NCBI GenBank assembly: GCA_029856045.1
Contig: JAHQWG010000028.1
Location: 32,001-96,000 of the forward strand
DNA length: 64,000 nt
Direction of reading: 5' to 3'
Source of the DNA: Promethearchaeia archaeon
GTDB taxonomy: Archaea > Asgardarchaeota > Lokiarchaeia > Sigyniarchaeales > SOKP01
A program made the position numbers and the translations under genes. Below are positions 3,322-48,267 of the stretch, one piece after another (the stretch's first letter is position 1; every line of letters begins with the position of its first letter). The notes under the pieces were generated by a model. It did not search any database. It saw nothing but the letters and a program-made list of their open reading frames with translations, and was not told where the DNA came from.

Positions 3322-4419
3322 ATGTTAGAATTTAGATTAGTTCCACAATTTCGCAATAATTGTGTGATTCAGGGTAAAAAAGAGTTAGTTAGCAGTTTTA
3401 AAGAAGGAGATACAGTATTTTTATTATCAAAAATTCCAACAAAAACATTTTCTATCTTAACAAAAGTTGAAGGGATTATAGATTCTGATGAGAATCTTAT
3501 CTACATCGATCAAAGGATACTTGGTAAATTAGCAGAAAATGATATGGTGACGATTTTAAAACATAATCCAGCCGAAGCATTAACAATATATTTAGCAATA
3601 TCGGAATCTTTTTCCAGAGTTTTCAGCGGTGATTGGACATCTTTTGCCAAAAAACCATTAGAAAATAAAGTTTTTGATTTTGGACAAGAAGTATCATTTA
3701 TAATTCCCTGGGAAGATGAACATGGAAACCAACTTCCTCCAATTGCTATTTCAGGATTTGTATATTCAACTGTTCCTACACCACCTATAAAAGTTGGATT
3801 ACAAACGAAAATATATTTGAAAAAATTTCCTGAACTACAGCTACAAAAAATAAAACAAACTGGTTTTGAAAAACAAGAAGCACGTGTAAATATATTGGAT
3901 AATGAAATCCAACAAAACATTTTGCACCTTATGCAAACGATTAAACAAAATAATTATCCAACTAAGGCAAATAAATATAAATTTAAAAATGTTAATGCAA
4001 AACAATTATTTGCCTCTATAAACGAGGTTTTTAAAGGATTTCGAGTTGTTGAAGGGCCAACTGAAAAGACATTTGATAGTGAAAATCAATCATTTTTAGG
4101 TTCCATTGTTTATCTTGCTGAAGAAACTACAGATTCTCTGGCAGTTATTGATCTTCAGGTATTAGCAAAAAATCAAAATGGAGAAGTAATACTAATGGTC
4201 ACTGCTAAAGATAATGATGTTGTTTATAATCTGTTAAATAAATATGATTTATTAATTCGCAAAATTAAAATTGGGTTAGAAGAAAAAGCAGAGCTAAAGG
4301 TTGAGATTTGTCCTAGCTGTGGGGCAGATTTACCTCTTGATGATGTGGACTCAGATGGATCTATTGAATGTTTATATTGCCACAGAACCTCAATTATTCC
4401 AAAATCATATAGATACTAG
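3322..4419 (+). CDS. CDC48 N-domain/UFD1-fold protein with platform-like middle domain and C-terminal Zn ribbon; no ATPase domain
   Basis: IYIDQRILGKLAENDMVTI...AEALTIYL...LENKVFDFGQEVSF...VYSTVPTPPIKVGLQTKIYL follows the CDC48_N + CDC48_2 pattern; CPSC..CLYC at the C-terminus; no Walker A. Confidence 0.65.
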   Translation: MLEFRLVPQFRNNCVIQGKKELVSSFKEGDTVFLLSKIPTKTFSILTKVEGIIDSDENLIYIDQRILGKLAENDMVTILKHNPAEALTIYLAISESFSRVFSGDWTSFAKKPLENKVFDFGQEVSFIIPWEDEHGNQLPPIAISGFVYSTVPTPPIKVGLQTKIYLKKFPELQLQKIKQTGFEKQEARVNILDNEIQQNILHLMQTIKQNNYPTKANKYKFKNVNAKQLFASINEVFKGFRVVEGPTEKTFDSENQSFLGSIVYLAEETTDSLAVIDLQVLAKNQNGEVILMVTAKDNDVVYNLLNKYDLLIRKIKIGLEEKAELKVEICPSCGADLPLDDVDSDGSIECLYCHRTSIIPKSYRY

Positions 4420-4450: not shown

Positions 4451-5230
4451 ATGGATTCCGATAGATATACACGTTTAAAAGCAATAAAAGAATTTGGTTA
4501 TGATATAAATTGGGATGATCTTAAAAAATACCATGTTGGCATAGTTGGAGTTGGTGGGTTAGGTGCAGTTTCAGCCGAAATGGCTACAAGGTGTGGAATT
4601 GGCAAGATTTCATTGTTTGATTTTGATATTGTAGAAGAAGTTAATCTCAATAGATTATTTTTTAAACCTCAACATGTGGGTTTATTAAAAGTTGAAGCGG
4701 CAAAAAAGATTCTGAAAGAAATAAATCCTGATGTGGAGTTTTTTACTTATCCTAAAGACATTATGGATATGGATTTTGAACCCATATTTGATAAAAAGAT
4801 TCAAGAAATAGATATTATTCTTAATGGAGTTGATAATCTAGCTGCTCGTGAGTATTTGAATATAAAATGCATTAGATTCAAAATACCTTATATAAATGCT
4901 GGTGCATCTAGAAGTGGTCTATCAGGTTATGTCCATCCAATAATCCCTTATAAAACAGCTTGTTCTGCATGCATAAAGCGGATTAATATTGAAAAATCTA
5001 ATGACCGTGGAGAGCCATGCACCGCATCTCTGCCATCAACTATGGCGATATTAGCTAGTATTCAAATTCAAGAACTGCTGAAGTATTTATTGAAATTTGG
5101 GACGATGATCGATTATGTCATGTACAATATGCTTTCTGGAGAATTTTCATATTATAAGACAATCAGAGATAATAAGTGTTCAATTTGTGGAGACTTTAAT
5201 GTTCTAAAGGAAAATGAAAAACATTTATAG
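4451..5230 (+). CDS. uba5: UBA5-like ubiquitin-like-protein activating enzyme (E1, ThiF family)
   Basis: GVGGLG; AEMATRCGIGK; NLNRLFFKP; CSAC/CSIC Zn ligands; catalytic GEPC190TASLPSTM; ELLKYLLKFG. These match UBA5-specific motifs as remembered (AEMLTRCGIGK, NMNRLFFQP, GVCAASLPTTM, NVLKFLLNFG). Confidence 0.88.
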   Translation: MDSDRYTRLKAIKEFGYDINWDDLKKYHVGIVGVGGLGAVSAEMATRCGIGKISLFDFDIVEEVNLNRLFFKPQHVGLLKVEAAKKILKEINPDVEFFTYPKDIMDMDFEPIFDKKIQEIDIILNGVDNLAAREYLNIKCIRFKIPYINAGASRSGLSGYVHPIIPYKTACSACIKRINIEKSNDRGEPCTASLPSTMAILASIQIQELLKYLLKFGTMIDYVMYNMLSGEFSYYKTIRDNKCSICGDFNVLKENEKHL

Positions 5231-5281: not shown

Positions 5282-6508
5282 ATGGATTTTGTAAAAATTA
5301 CAGAGGATATTTTAAATTTTATTAAAAAGCAGGCCATATTAAGCACTGATGAGATATATGGATGGTTAATTGGATATCAAATGAATAATATTCCATACAT
5401 AATTACCGCTCTCGATTGTCAAAATTATCTACAGCAGTCATACATCAACGCCATCCCTGATCCCCTAGAGATTCAAAAAATTGGTGGCTTAATGCCTCAC
5501 GGGATTGGCATTATTGGTATATATCATTCTCATCCCTTTAAAAGTGAAGTTTTTCATTCTCATACAGACGATGAAACTCTAATAAGCTTAAGTAAACAAC
5601 TTCCAAATTGTGTGTCAATTGTAACAAATGGAAAAGATATTAATTATTATCAAATGGATAAGTCATTTAAATTAGTGGATATTGATCCAAAAATCTGGAA
5701 ACCTGAAATACCAGAATTCTTACCCATTTTTTTTAATAATTCATTTATTATTAATTTAGAGAAAAATCTACTCAATAATGAGAGCCTACATGTAAAAATA
5801 TTTAATAAATTTAAAGATTATTTAGAAGAGAATTGGGATGATTTTAAATTATTCAAAAATAATATAGAAATTTCTTATAATGAAAAAATAAATCAATATT
5901 TTAAATCTTCTCTGGATGGAAATTATCTGGAATTGAAGTTTAAAAATAAAAAGAATATTAATGAATTAATTAAAATTAATGTATTCAATGAAGAAATAGG
6001 CGTTAAAGTTGCAGACCAAGCTGATATGGTTTCTTTGCAATTAAATCTTAAATCCTTAGATCTTTTTTATATTACCGATAAAAATAGTATTAATGAACTC
6101 AGAAATTCAATTAAAATTGAAATAATAAATAATAGTATAATGCCAAAAATCTTTCGATGCTTAATTGATATTGATAATTCTGAATTACGAATACCAAATG
6201 AGCTTTTTCTTAATTTATATGGATTTTTCATAAAAGTTAATTATTATAATCAAGAGATTATTCAAAAATTAAATGATACTTATCCAATCAACAATAATTA
6301 TGAAAATCTTTCGATAAAAAATTGGGAATTTTTAGGTAGGATGTTAAAAATAGTGGATTTATATTTATCTTTAAAAATTGATAAATCTTCAAAAAGGCTT
6401 CTCATCGAATTAGTTGAAAATTTAATTAAATTATCCAAAAATCACAAATGGTATGATAAGATAAAAAAAGTTTTAGATAAACAAAAAGAATCTTTATTAC
6501 GATCATAA
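5282..6508 (+). CDS. JAB1/MPN+ (JAMM) metalloprotease with long C-terminal domain
   Basis: EIYGWLIG...GIYHSHPFKSEVFHSHTD fits E-xn-HxH-x8-S-x2-D. Confidence 0.85.
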   Translation: MDFVKITEDILNFIKKQAILSTDEIYGWLIGYQMNNIPYIITALDCQNYLQQSYINAIPDPLEIQKIGGLMPHGIGIIGIYHSHPFKSEVFHSHTDDETLISLSKQLPNCVSIVTNGKDINYYQMDKSFKLVDIDPKIWKPEIPEFLPIFFNNSFIINLEKNLLNNESLHVKIFNKFKDYLEENWDDFKLFKNNIEISYNEKINQYFKSSLDGNYLELKFKNKKNINELIKINVFNEEIGVKVADQADMVSLQLNLKSLDLFYITDKNSINELRNSIKIEIINNSIMPKIFRCLIDIDNSELRIPNELFLNLYGFFIKVNYYNQEIIQKLNDTYPINNNYENLSIKNWEFLGRMLKIVDLYLSLKIDKSSKRLLIELVENLIKLSKNHKWYDKIKKVLDKQKESLLRS

Positions 6509-6582: not shown

Positions 6583-7401
6583 ATGGCAAATATTGGCATC
6601 ACTACAGTTTATTTTGTTAATAAGTTTGCTCCAGAAAAAAAACATATTCCATTTCCAGTTTCTCCTTCAATGACAATGGCAGATCTTTTACCAGAGTTAT
6701 CTAAAAAGTTTAATATACATTTACAAAATATTTCAATTGCGGTGCAGGATTCACAAGTTTTAACGATAGAAGAATATTCTTTATCACTAAAGAATTTAAT
6801 TGATAAATTTGGTAAAACATTTGATATTATTGATAGAAATATAGTAGGCACTGAGAAATCTGATGCACAATATTCAGAAAGTCTGGTGGATGAATTAATT
6901 CCTGAGTTTGGAGCCGAATGGGCTAAGATAGGTCCCAAACATCCACGTTGGCAAGAAAGAATAAAAAAAGAAATAGAAAATATCTTAAGATACGTACATT
7001 ATCTAAAAAAACTTTCAAATGAGCCATGGTTTAGATTGGTTCCTTCGAAAAATCCTAGACATAATTACCTCATTTGGAATGGACATATCCTTGTTCCAAA
7101 ACGACCAGAAATAAAATTTGATATCGCAATATTATTAACTTCAGAGTATCCTAAAAATTGCCCACGTTGTTTTGCAGATGACAAAATAATGGATTATTGT
7201 GGAAAACTATATTTTGGTAATGTATGGGAGCAAGAAGGGCATAAATACGTGATGATATGCCATGACCATATGAGTGAAACCACCGCCTGGAAAGAATCAC
7301 TGGGGATTGTTCATTTCTTCATAAGAGAGATTTGGATTTGGTGGATGGCTCAACAAAATTTCATCATTCAAAATTGGGATGAAAAGCATGGTAAAAAGTA
7401 A
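6583..7401 (+). CDS. UFM1-like modifier (aa 1-89, 6583-6849) fused to UFC1-like E2 (aa 90-272)
   Basis: KFGKTFDIIDRNIVG resembles UFM1 KHGSELRIIPRDRVG; GPKHPRWQERIKKEIENILRYV...NEPWFRL resembles UFC1 [23 protein letters not shown]...NDWFRL; YPKNCP; catalytic MIC226HDH. Confidence 0.85.
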   Translation: MANIGITTVYFVNKFAPEKKHIPFPVSPSMTMADLLPELSKKFNIHLQNISIAVQDSQVLTIEEYSLSLKNLIDKFGKTFDIIDRNIVGTEKSDAQYSESLVDELIPEFGAEWAKIGPKHPRWQERIKKEIENILRYVHYLKKLSNEPWFRLVPSKNPRHNYLIWNGHILVPKRPEIKFDIAILLTSEYPKNCPRCFADDKIMDYCGKLYFGNVWEQEGHKYVMICHDHMSETTAWKESLGIVHFFIREIWIWWMAQQNFIIQNWDEKHGKK

Positions 7402-7572: not shown

Positions 7573-8625
7573 ATGAAAATTATTCAATATTATATAAAAT
7601 TGGATAATATGGAGATTAATAATGAATTAGAAAAACTTAGAAGGAATCTATTGAAGTTAAAAGATACTTTAAACGCATATAGAATCCCTCCATCATTAAC
7701 AAAGATTGATAAAATAAAGAAGAACGTTATTAATAAAATAAAAATGGTAATTTTCTATTTAGAATTGATACTGATTGAAACGGAAAAAACTATTTATGAT
7801 TTTGAAGAAAGTACCCTTGATTTCAAGGATAATGATAATATTGAAGAGGTTCTCAATATTTTCTCAGAATGTGATAAAAAGATAAATAATTTATTATTAC
7901 AATTGGATAATTTTGGAGATCTAACTCAATTTAAAAATATTTTCGATTTGATTGAACCTGAAATTGAAAAACTATATCCTAAATCTAAAGATATCGAGAA
8001 AATTTTGAAGCTAAGTAAAAAAGCCAATTTATTAAAAATCGAGAGAGAGAAATTACCAACAATTCTGAAAATTGAAAGGGAAGAAAAGAAAGAAGTAAAA
8101 GAAAAAAAAATTATTCAACCTTTAGAAACTGCAGAAGAAAATAATGAAGTTCTACGTAATATTTTCGAAAGATTCTCCTTAAAGGTTCCAAATAAGAGTC
8201 AATTAATTGATAGTATCGTATCGATTGGGGATTCTAAAATAACAAACGAATTAGGGGGAGTCGTAAAAATAACAGCATTATATAACTTTATAAAAGATGA
8301 GAATAAGGATTTAGATTTTACATTAGACGATTTAAACAAAGTTTTAAAATATATGAGAAAGAAAGGATATATTTCAGATATTGAAGAGATTGAAAATCTA
8401 AAGTTAGTAAAATTTATTCCACTTGAACTATCATCAGATCCAAAATTATTATTAGAATCCGTAGGATTCGAAGGCGTGGAGACTAAAGAAAATTTAATGA
8501 AAAAACTTAATTGGCCAGAATCAAGAGTGGATGAGGTTTTAAGGTTTTTAATTGACAAGGGAATATGCAAATCAGAAAATAATTCTTTAATAAGTGAAAG
8601 ATTTTACTTTCCAGGATTAGTATAG
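7573..8625 (+). CDS. Coiled-coil protein with C-terminal ESCRT-II Vps22/Vps36 (EAP30) tandem winged helices; frame stays open upstream to about 7462
   Basis: GGVVKITALY...DDLNKVLKYM...FIPLELSSDPKLLL...GVETKENLMKKLNWPESRVDEVLRFLIDKG...FYFPGL follows the SNF8/Vps22 pattern. Confidence 0.8.
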   Translation: MKIIQYYIKLDNMEINNELEKLRRNLLKLKDTLNAYRIPPSLTKIDKIKKNVINKIKMVIFYLELILIETEKTIYDFEESTLDFKDNDNIEEVLNIFSECDKKINNLLLQLDNFGDLTQFKNIFDLIEPEIEKLYPKSKDIEKILKLSKKANLLKIEREKLPTILKIEREEKKEVKEKKIIQPLETAEENNEVLRNIFERFSLKVPNKSQLIDSIVSIGDSKITNELGGVVKITALYNFIKDENKDLDFTLDDLNKVLKYMRKKGYISDIEEIENLKLVKFIPLELSSDPKLLLESVGFEGVETKENLMKKLNWPESRVDEVLRFLIDKGICKSENNSLISERFYFPGLV

Positions 8626-45900: not shown

Positions 45901-48267
45901 TTAGAGTTTCATTGCCCTTCCTATAACATTTTTAAAATTTTCTATGTCATCGGCTAATTTTTCCGCATCATCATCATTAATATTATCTTCTTTACTGTAT
46001 TTATTTAAAGCCGTTAACCAAAACTCAATTCTATCTAAAACGGGGTGACTCTCTCCTAAAATTTTTCTTATTCTCACAAATGTATCTTGAAGCTTAATAC
46101 GGATATTATTTGCACGCCATTTTAACATACAATAATCAGAAATTTCCATTAAATTTTGAGTAATGACCATTATGTCAAGTGTTTTTTCACGTTCTTCAGA
46201 TTTTATTTTTCTAATAATATTTATTTGCTCAAATAAGATTTCAATAATTTTTGCTAACCAACCAGTTAATTGTCCGGGATTACCGCACCAAACTCTTAAT
46301 TCTAGTGATTGATTTTTAGCATTAATAAATATTCTAGTAATTATTCTCCCACCGGTTACTTTTGCTTCAGCACAATACCATGCTTCAGCTTGGTAATTAT
46401 CATCATGCCCGTCTTCATGAGAAGTAACAATGGTAGTTTCAAAACTTTTTAGAGTTCTTTGGGCAGCTCTGAAAGCCAACCGAGGATCGAGATCGGCAAT
46501 CATAAATGCTCTTGCATCACTCGGTAGGTCTTGGATCGCTAATTGACAATCTTCCACATTGTCGAGAGTAGCGATGACTAATGGACATTTTATTTGCACA
46601 TTTTTTTTCTTGAGATATATGGTTTTTTTTTCACCTTTTGGAGACTTATAGATAACTGTTCCACCGATTGAAGATATTCCACATTCACGGGGTTCTAGGT
46701 AAAAATCAACTCCTCTTGAGTTATTAGGTTCAATTACAGGAATTGAAATTATTTCATTTTTTATATTATAACTAGAAGGGGCATCAAGTATAATCTTAAT
46801 AGAGTGAATTGCCACATCATTATGATTTCGAACTACTATTTTAAAGTGTAATTGACCTCCTTGAAAATCATATTCTCTAAGAACTTCAACCTTATCAGAT
46901 AACTTTAAGTCATCAGTTGGAATCTCATCTAATTTTATTGAATATTGAGATGGGATGGGAGTTACTTTTTCAAGAATGAACATTTTATTTAAAGAATCAA
47001 TATATCCTTCAATGGAGCCCCGTGATATCAGAATTGCTAATTTTTCCTCAATATTTGACTCAGTTATTCCTAAACGTCTCGCTAATTCTGTTAATGAAAT
47101 TTTCCTATAAACTTTAGTTACTTCTTTTATTTTGATTTCTAAGTGTTTTTGAGTCATAAATTCTCTTCTCTGAGTAAATACACCCTTAAGTTCTCCACTT
47201 TGTATAAGATTAAATAAAGTTCTCCGATTTAATTCCACAGCGATTTTAAGATCTTCTGAAATTTTATTAAGTTTAAAAATTCCTTTATCTTTTGCATATT
47301 CCTTTATTTCAATATTTAATTGATTTTGGGTGATTATTTCTTTTCCTTTATCTGCAAAAAAAGCAAATAACTTCTCTAATTTCATTAGATTTACGCAAAA
47401 ATTTTTAATATTTTCTTGAGGTAAATCTAATTCTTCACTAAGTTTTATTATTGAAATTCTGCCCTTTAAATTAATAATATCAATTATTTTATCGAAGATA
47501 TATTGTTTAGTATAATATTTCTGCTTGCTTATCGTAAAAGAACCTTTGATTTTATATTCCTTAATCAACTTTAAGATTAATTTTATTATATTATCAGAAC
47601 TCATATCTAACATTGAAGATAGATTTTGATTCTCAATAATTCCATCTTCTTCAATTTTTGAAACAATTTTTTGTTTGATTTCTGATGAGATATAATAAAA
47701 TAAATTATGAATATTATCGGTAATTCCATAAACTTTATTTTCATTAATAAAATTTTTAATAATTCCAACAATCTCGTCTGAACTGACGTTAAACATTGTT
47801 GATAACGTAGTAAAATTAGTAATTGAGGCACTTTTTAATACTGCTAAAAGACATTGGGGGCATACTTCCTTACCTTCGAATTTTCTTAATTTTTTATTGC
47901 ATACTTCATCAAATTTTATTATACCAAGTCTTTTTGCATCTCTAAGAACTCTTTCTTTATAAGGATAAAATATTCCAGGAGATTTTAAATACGAATTCCA
48001 TCCACATTTTTTATCAGTGCATTTTAAATAGAATTGACCAGATGATAATCTATCTAACTGTAGTAGCGCTTTACATTCAGGACATGAACTTCTTTCTATT
48101 ATGGAACAGCGATATCTTAGATCTTTAGCATTAACTCGTGAATAATATAAATTATGATCTTTACAATACCATTTCTCTGTACTAATCACATGGTTTATGC
48201 AAAAGGAAGCTCCACACTTCTCACAAGTAAATACTACGTTTTCATCTTCACAAAATTCGCATTTCAT
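45901..48267 (-). CDS. Zn fingers + tandem PCI/winged-helix repeats (UFL1/DDRGK1-like) + adaptin-ear (GAE/platform)-like domains
   Basis: AN1-like CEFC..CEKC..FCINH; about 5 WH repeats (e.g. GRISIIKLSEELDL, RKISLTELARRLGI..GSIEGYID); Ig-like REYDFQGGQLHFKIVVRN...KCP; platform-like AWYCAEAKV..LELRVW. Confidence 0.7.
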   Translation of the reverse strand: MKCEFCEDENVVFTCEKCGASFCINHVISTEKWYCKDHNLYYSRVNAKDLRYRCSIIERSSCPECKALLQLDRLSSGQFYLKCTDKKCGWNSYLKSPGIFYPYKERVLRDAKRLGIIKFDEVCNKKLRKFEGKEVCPQCLLAVLKSASITNFTTLSTMFNVSSDEIVGIIKNFINENKVYGITDNIHNLFYYISSEIKQKIVSKIEEDGIIENQNLSSMLDMSSDNIIKLILKLIKEYKIKGSFTISKQKYYTKQYIFDKIIDIINLKGRISIIKLSEELDLPQENIKNFCVNLMKLEKLFAFFADKGKEIITQNQLNIEIKEYAKDKGIFKLNKISEDLKIAVELNRRTLFNLIQSGELKGVFTQRREFMTQKHLEIKIKEVTKVYRKISLTELARRLGITESNIEEKLAILISRGSIEGYIDSLNKMFILEKVTPIPSQYSIKLDEIPTDDLKLSDKVEVLREYDFQGGQLHFKIVVRNHNDVAIHSIKIILDAPSSYNIKNEIISIPVIEPNNSRGVDFYLEPRECGISSIGGTVIYKSPKGEKKTIYLKKKNVQIKCPLVIATLDNVEDCQLAIQDLPSDARAFMIADLDPRLAFRAAQRTLKSFETTIVTSHEDGHDDNYQAEAWYCAEAKVTGGRIITRIFINAKNQSLELRVWCGNPGQLTGWLAKIIEILFEQINIIRKIKSEEREKTLDIMVITQNLMEISDYCMLKWRANNIRIKLQDTFVRIRKILGESHPVLDRIEFWLTALNKYSKEDNINDDDAEKLADDIENFKNVIGRAMKL

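Follow-up and report, generated by a model that had tools for sequence, protein, structure and literature searches.

A UFM1-like modifier and a UFC1-like E2 are encoded as one polypeptide in the 64,000-nucleotide stretch of archaeal DNA analysed here (hereafter called the window). As an earlier note on this DNA had claimed, they share a single 272-aa open reading frame (6583-7401, plus strand) without an internal stop. In our view the fusion is genuine and recurrent, and it represents a probably neutral polyprotein version of what is probably an Asgard UFM1-type conjugation operon. Instead of a switch, it looks like the ordinary trimming of a precursor, within a system that may have been a forerunner of eukaryotic UFM1 tagging. 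The window DNA is AT-rich, and the relatives are named Promethearchaeota/Lokiarchaeia, together with other Asgard archaea. The genes and domains concerned are listed in Table 1.

Table 1. Genes and domains in and beside the operon, in window coordinates
Feature	Position	Strand	Remarks
Operon gene with CDC48-N-like N-terminal half and C-terminal zinc ribbon	3322..4419	+	possible adaptor
UBA5-like E1	4451..5230	+	GVGGLG nucleotide-binding loop; Cys190 in CTASLP; zinc Cys pairs
JAMM/MPN+ metalloprotease	5282..6508	+	N-terminal about 135 aa; long C-terminal region beyond; candidate maturase and deconjugase
UFM1-like beta-grasp modifier	6583..6849	+	aa 1-89; ends Val88-Gly89, the predicted mature C-terminus; G89 codon 6847-6849
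Polar linker (TEKSDAQ)	6850..6870	+	aa 90-96; variable; counterpart of the free N-terminus of stand-alone E2s; predicted scissile bond G89-T90
UFC1-like E2	6871..7401	+	catalytic Cys226 codon 7258-7260, within invariant C-H-x-H; C206-G-K208 at the TAK position
Coiled-coil and tandem winged-helix protein (EAP30/Vps36-like)	7573..8625	+	possible scaffold or E3-like factor
SPFH/Band 7 protein	8706..9911	+	Pfam Band_7 E 5e-16; usually adjoins the operon (20 of the first 35 loci)

The tail of the modifier reads IIDRNIVG, is closed by G89, and continues as TEKSDAQYSES toward the E2, in which CGKLYFG begins at residue 206 and C226 sits in MICHDH. The spacing between K208 and C226 is 18 residues, as compared to the eight between K108 and C116 of UFC1, which corresponds to an insertion of about 10 aa before the Cys; a gap is found at the same place in the HHalign alignment with eukaryotic-type UFC1 (probability 96.8%). 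The VG end, the polar linker, the catalytic Cys, the CGKLYFG motif, and the insertion thus all lie where the earlier note had placed them. In the AlphaFold2 model of the full protein (pLDDT 89.8, pTM 0.87), the linker region is a coil with lower pLDDT. Cleavage after G89 is predicted to yield products of 10.0 and 22.1 kDa.

Is the fusion a product of faulty assembly? Contigs from three different sequencing studies span positions 6840-6860, the reads of which the earlier note had wanted confirmed, and the ORF is free of indels in all of them: X3 record 3 has 0 differences, X7 record 10 covers the whole stretch, and X4 is the third. On these grounds, an assembly error is excluded. A further 17 full-length fused proteins, with 44-85% identity, also count against such an error. 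The metatranscriptome yielded one 151-nt contig (7089-7239), which lies outside the junction and provides no evidence of expression. The scan for promoters and terminators, which is of the bacterial type, stayed at chance level. An internal start for the E2 was rejected: from G89 to the first conserved E2 residue, the ORF at 6583-7401 contains no ATG, GTG, or TTG. As such a start would in any case leave the modifier unfreed, it offers no alternative route to a free tag.

Both halves can be identified in the model by their structure. The E2 half (residues 94-271) superposes on the UFC1 structure with a Z score of 16.1 and an rmsd of 2.6 Å over 149 aligned residues, and its top 28 VIA rows are all UFC1. 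The tag half (residues 1-90) superposes best on UFM1 (5hkh_A; Z 12.5, rmsd 2.2 Å, 86 aligned), and eight UFM1 entries outrank the first non-UFM1 ubiquitin fold (Z 10.4); Caldiarchaeum ubiquitin reaches Z 9.9. These best matches bear out the assignment of the two halves in the earlier note. At the sequence level, the tag is 14-18% identical to the UFM1 structures, the Pfam Ufm1 profile (PF03671) remains below its cut-off and matches only 2 of 24 family members (best E 0.035), and the tag profile finds no UFM1 match among the PDB sequences. As judged from the model, the N-terminal half is UFM1-like through its fold and its tail, and not through a sequence profile. Folding the tag by itself from a single sequence gave a poor model (pLDDT 59), which was left out of the evidence.

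The E2 half is recognizable in sequence as well. It passes the cut-off of the Pfam UFC1 profile (PF08694; 27.2 versus 25 bits) and matches human UFC1 among the PDB sequences with an E value of 4e-7. C226 is invariant in the family and aligns with the ICL Cys of eukaryotic-type UFC1, in register with C116. At the TAK position, the Lys is kept in 23 of 26 sequences, while the first residue is Cys in 13, Ala in eight, and Thr in five, and the second is mostly Gly; there is no HPN motif. In human UFC1, a Cys in place of T106 (T106C) strongly lowers the activity (PMC12032130), and the chemistry of an E2 with CGK instead of TAK may therefore differ. Among 1.84 billion representatives, 46 proteins were retrieved with a profile: this family, Hodarchaeales pseudo-enzymes, and five eukaryotic-type UFC1 proteins. 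No canonical E2 was identified among the 46, a result that supports a specific link of the family to UFC1. The tree built from the E2 alone carried long-branch warnings, and was not used to place the family relative to eukaryotic UFC1.

How is the junction treated in the relatives? The earlier note had asked whether the homologues are fused or split, and both states occur: some proteins are fused, with about 270 aa, and others are E2s alone, with about 180 aa. Apart from a few rearranged cases, the E2 gene of a split locus immediately follows that of the tag. All 49 distinct split tags have VG at the position of G89; in 38 of them the stop codon follows immediately, and the other 11 carry tails of one to three residues. 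The stop codon of these relatives marks exactly the predicted cut site that had first been proposed. In most split genes the tag stop overlaps or abuts the E2 start, with NTGA at 30 of the 49 stops.

In the non-redundant fusions with the catalytic Cys, the Gly is kept in 26 of 27 (25 VG and one AG). Loss of VG at the junction, which would have spoken against the reading in the earlier note, is thus not what the split tags and nearly all active fusions show. In 26 fusions, the column entropy rises from 0 bits for the Gly to 2.7-3.5 bits for positions +1 to +7. The junction columns of the fusions were anchored on the profile end, and unanchored alignments likewise show G89 to be invariant, as it is in 60 aligned family members. 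About half of the fusions have Ser or Thr at +1; the others have Gly, Met, Asp, Asn, Val, Leu, or Ala. In the seven-member clade of the window, the eight residues up to G89 (including DRNIVG) are invariant, while the linker varies in both sequence and length, with T, V, G, or S at +1. As compared to a relative with 85% identity, the linker differs at five of its seven residues, and aa 82-89 are identical.

The junction VG is absent where the fused E2 lacks the Cys (P0105, P0117-P0119, P0121, P0129, P0130, and L020/P0095), and these proteins serve as a natural negative control. There is one exception: P0091 (L133:1373-2206), a Ubl-E2 fusion directly upstream of a UBA5-like E1, keeps the Cys and has no VG. 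No free tag was found near it on its short 3.6-kb contig. P0091 indicates that a non-cleavable form can exist. Moreover, VG in recent fusions may be kept by descent alone, which counts against our reading.

Several of these proteins and loci have unusual architectures. The Hodarchaeales family of P0117 (L136:6001-7203; also P0118-P0121, P0129, and P0130) consists of proteins of 400-540 aa encoded outside the operon, in which a Ubl-like N-terminus is fused to a UFC1-like domain without the Cys. The 897-aa ORF at L020:3-2693 has SIR2-like and TPR domains, recognized by eye, followed by an E2 with a Cys-to-Ser replacement and a C-terminal Ubl-like domain without a terminal Gly; it looks like a defence-type protein with pseudo-E2 and Ubl modules. 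Two loci, L073 (1981-3594) and L078, contain two tandem E2 genes: the first is fused to the tag in L073, and the tag is separate, with an MVL tail, in its sister L078. A short duplication of the junction at L018:6253-6312 repeats the last codons of the tag and the E2 start, and the E2 gene lies about 60 nt further downstream. Partial E2 copies are also found on two contigs labelled Patescibacteria (L025 and L033), which are possibly misbinned.

Next to the fusion lie the genes for a protease and an E1. The JAMM gene ends 74 nt upstream of the fusion on the same strand, and the two are probably co-expressed, since they are adjacent and co-oriented. Its motif is intact (E24, H82, H84, S93, and a downstream Asp), and the protein scores above the cut-off of Pfam Prok-JAB. 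E24, H82, S83, H84, S93, and D96 are invariant across 41 operon copies, and the motif is intact in fused loci and in split loci. The JAMM gene occurs in 27 of the first 35 loci, and accompanies the tag in nearly every sufficiently long locus. For the E1, the best PDB match is UBA5 (E 2e-54, versus 6e-25 for MoeB), the CTASLP motif aligns with CAASLP, and the E1 motifs are intact in all of the fused loci checked. The CDC48-N-like gene is present in 22 of the first 35 loci, and its product matches the CDC48_N/CDC48_2 cluster with a TM score of 0.66 (by target). The EAP30/Vps36-like protein scores 26.1 bits against Pfam EAP30, just below the cut-off of 26.8.

By gene content, the predicted operon is conserved among the Asgard (Lokiarchaeia) loci. 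Its distribution is patchy: it was found in 37 of 400 genomes of the phylum, in nine of 90 high-quality ones, and in none of four same-genus genomes. PADLOC and NCBIfam returned only generic E1 and JAB matches. In the genome, no match to UFSP (Peptidase C78) was found, a weak negative as the search had no positive control. Elsewhere in the window, 38 kb from the operon, a 788-aa tandem winged-helix protein (45901-48267, minus strand) passes the Pfam E3_UFM1_ligase profile (UFL1; PF09743) with 52 bits. Two membrane-anchored neighbours (2-1627 and 1773-2306, both minus strand) have in common a near-identical C-terminal winged-helix/PCI-like tail, and members of their family also sit within or next to several further copies of the operon.

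Where does the E1 obtain its substrate? Adenylation by an E1 requires a Ubl with a free C-terminal carboxylate. The C-terminus of the fusion itself is variable and has no conserved Gly. The source genome is 100% complete by markers, and no second Gly-ended copy of the tag was found in the nine fusion genomes (this one and eight others, some of them incomplete). Given the intact E1, the lack of a free copy of the tag in these genomes, and the carboxylate requirement, cleavage after G89 would be the simplest source of the substrate. The only other copy of the domain in the source genome is internal to a membrane protein on contig C10 (L034:397-2229, minus strand). This protein of about 611 aa has C-terminal hydrophobic helices, and its UFM1-like domain is 49% identical to the tag and ends in HFAG followed by GG, probably with a further beta-grasp domain before it. 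Similar matches occur in three same-genus genomes without the operon.

Based on these comparisons of sequence, we consider cleavage after G89 very likely. The earlier note had held it to be required, and the VG of all split tags, the Gly of nearly all active fusions, the lack of a free copy in the genomes searched, and the intact E1 and JAMM alongside argue that it very probably is. We propose the following course, which as a whole we regard as likely. For its own modifier, the E2 would play the part of a pro-sequence. The G89-T90 bond would be cut by a JAMM protease, most probably the product of the gene immediately upstream; this would release a UFM1-like tag of 10 kDa, with its C-terminal Gly free, and a UFC1-like E2 of 22 kDa. 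The UBA5-like E1 would then adenylate G89, form a thioester on Cys190, and pass the tag to Cys226 of the E2, which would attach it to a target. The processing is probably constitutive. Release of the modifier and E2 in a 1:1 ratio, as the earlier note had envisaged, would follow if cleavage happens, but it is not special to the fusion, since split tag genes mostly overlap or abut the E2 start.

One point against cleavage comes from the archaeal JAMM CsRpn11, whose activity varies with the folding state of the segment after the Gly (PMC6043591); here, just seven linker residues precede the E2 fold. A prediction of the complex between JAMM (residues 1-139) with Zn and the tag with the linker gave a score of 0.00, which is evidence neither way.

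The fused and split states alternate in the family. The tree was calculated from the tag and E2 without the junction columns (50 rows, 27 of them fused; LG+G4) and is unrooted, so that gains and losses of the fusion are indistinguishable in the minimum of 11 state changes that it requires (bootstrap 10-12), seven of which are forced by well-supported branches. A single fused clade appears in 0 of 200 bootstrap trees, and a single origin of this kind was rejected by the AU test (p-AU 2e-85). The sister pairs L037/L068 and L073/L078 are in unlike states. The clade of the window is fused throughout (seven rows, 100/99 support) down to 64% identity, which indicates that the fusion is not a recent slip. 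On this tree, the fusion is probably a recurring, close-to-neutral alternative to two adjacent genes, and it would be tolerated because the operon protease already trims short tails.

The earlier note had suggested that cleavage acts as the on-switch of the pathway: the fusion would be stored in an inactive state and cut only in response to a cue, for example membrane stress or infection by a virus. The clade of the window has indeed stayed fused over a deep divergence, the patchy operon resembles an accessory or defence module, and the JAMM has a long region beyond its protease domain. However, the state changes number at least 7-11, the sister pairs named above differ in state, the 38 tags that end at VG are mature without a cut, and the linker lacks the conservation expected of a regulatory site. 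In addition, the Bub peptidase of bacteria does not block conjugation, and seems to be mainly a pre-protein maturase (PMC11601596). The case for an on-switch is weak: the tag is produced in its mature form by most relatives, no conserved signal is found in the linker, and the protease gene lies next to the fusion in the same orientation. The alternation of states favours a neutral precursor over such a switch, which we consider distinctly unlikely. Equally unlikely is the wider version, in which the operon is a functional UFMylation cascade of archaea and the sister of the eukaryotic cascade, and the JAMM cut is signal-gated in the stably fused clade of the window, for example in defence or membrane stress. 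If it were true, the pathway would be stored pre-assembled and switched on by proteolysis.

The remaining alternatives concern the protease and the cut itself. The same pre-protein might be cut by another JAMM of the genome, the operon JAMM being mainly a deconjugase. Seven JAMM-domain ORFs are present in the genome, and the six outside the operon speak against the operon JAMM as the protease; some archaeal JAMMs are also promiscuous. On the other hand, the operon JAMM goes with the tag in nearly all loci that are long enough, patchy though the operon is, and in Bub and Caldiarchaeum the trimming is done by the cognate operon JAMMs, and we judge another protease to be unlikely. Could the fusion remain uncut, with the beta-grasp domain as an integral docking domain of the E2, or with the fused operon in decay? 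P0091 would suit this idea, as would the internal copies of the domain in the C10 protein and L020, and the pTM of the model is compatible with domain packing. However, the integral and pseudo-enzyme fusions lose VG where the active ones keep it, an uncut fusion would leave the E1 without a substrate, and synonymous changes outnumber amino-acid changes in both halves relative to the closest relative; an uncut fusion is quite improbable. Least credible, and in our estimate extremely improbable, is self-charging, in which the E2~tag thioester would form without the E1, through an attack on the G89 bond by Cys226 or a +1 nucleophile. The tether between tag and E2 and the frequent Ser/Thr at +1 would allow for it, but +1 is also occupied by a variety of other residues, the E1 and JAMM are kept intact, and the exchange of an amide for a thioester is unfavourable chemistry.

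Our preferred reading, a pre-protein trimmed by the operon JAMM, has a precedent that the earlier note overlooked: in bacterial Type I Bub, the JAMM domain of BubCD cuts BubAB, a Ubl-E2 pre-protein, right after the conserved G229 (PMC11601596). Both systems have the Ubl-E2 order in one polypeptide with a conserved junction Gly, and both encode a JAMM peptidase and a homodimeric UBA5/ThiF-type E1 in the operon. The two systems also differ: the E1 and E2 of Bub lack the catalytic Cys and form Tyr and Ser oxyesters, whereas Cys190 and Cys226 are present here; the JAMM is fused to the E1 in Bub, and is encoded separately here; all Type I Bub operons are fused, while the Asgard fusion comes and goes; and both halves here are of the UFM1/UFC1 type. 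Bub also contains BubE (DUF6527), no match to which was found among the eight neighbouring proteins scanned. The Asgard fusion would thus be Bub-like in its working, yet is not a member of Bub, because its operon has separate genes for E1 and JAMM, and its E1 and E2 each have the catalytic Cys.

The eukaryotic cascade (UBA5, UFC1, UFM1, UFL1-DDRGK1, and UFSP1/2) has in common with the Asgard set the UFM1-like fold, the single-Gly VG end, a UFC1-type E2 without HPN, a minimal E1 of the UBA5 type, and a Gly that would need proteolysis to be exposed. In pro-UFM1, the tail comprises two residues and must be trimmed by the cysteine protease UFSP (PMC10952357), while here an entire E2 takes the place of that tail, and a JAMM is the only candidate protease; the E2 also has C/A/T-G-K instead of TAK and the 10-aa insertion before the Cys. 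The operons of Caldiarchaeum ubiquitin and bacterial Bil also combine a Ubl, E1, E2, and JAMM, with the JAMM maturing the Ubl precursor; in Caldiarchaeum subterraneum, CsRpn11 trims the archaeal ubiquitin precursor (PMC6043591). However, these systems use a Gly-Gly ubiquitin-type modifier, a canonical E2, a short propeptide, and separate genes.

UFC1 and UFM1 have been reported as eukaryote-only (PMC10183829). Ufm1 homologues, some of the matches not full-length, were described in nine Asgard clades (Kostlbacher et al., PMC12962969), and they probably belong to the same family as the tag studied here; the passages of that paper that describe them mention no UFC1, operon, or E2 fusion. In the literature searched, we found no Asgard or archaeal UFC1, no such operon, and no Ubl-E2 fusion of the UFM1 lineage.

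On the sequence evidence, the modifier-E2 polyprotein arose independently of bacterial Bub, and many times. The fusion by itself is a modest novelty, and the operon set of UBA5, UFM1, UFC1, and JAMM carries most of the interest. The system could be sought in the cultured Candidatus Lokiarchaeum ossiferum, which has the split form with a tag ending in VG-GN (L007:5965-6825). Being fused identifies the tag and E2 as a cognate pair, and allows the protease to be assayed on a single gel. Moreover, three adjacent genes supply the tag, the UBA5-like E1, the UFC1-like E2, and the protease, so that a pre-eukaryotic origin of UFMylation chemistry is testable with three proteins. The locus also suggests that the role of UFSP was filled by a JAMM before eukaryotes arose.
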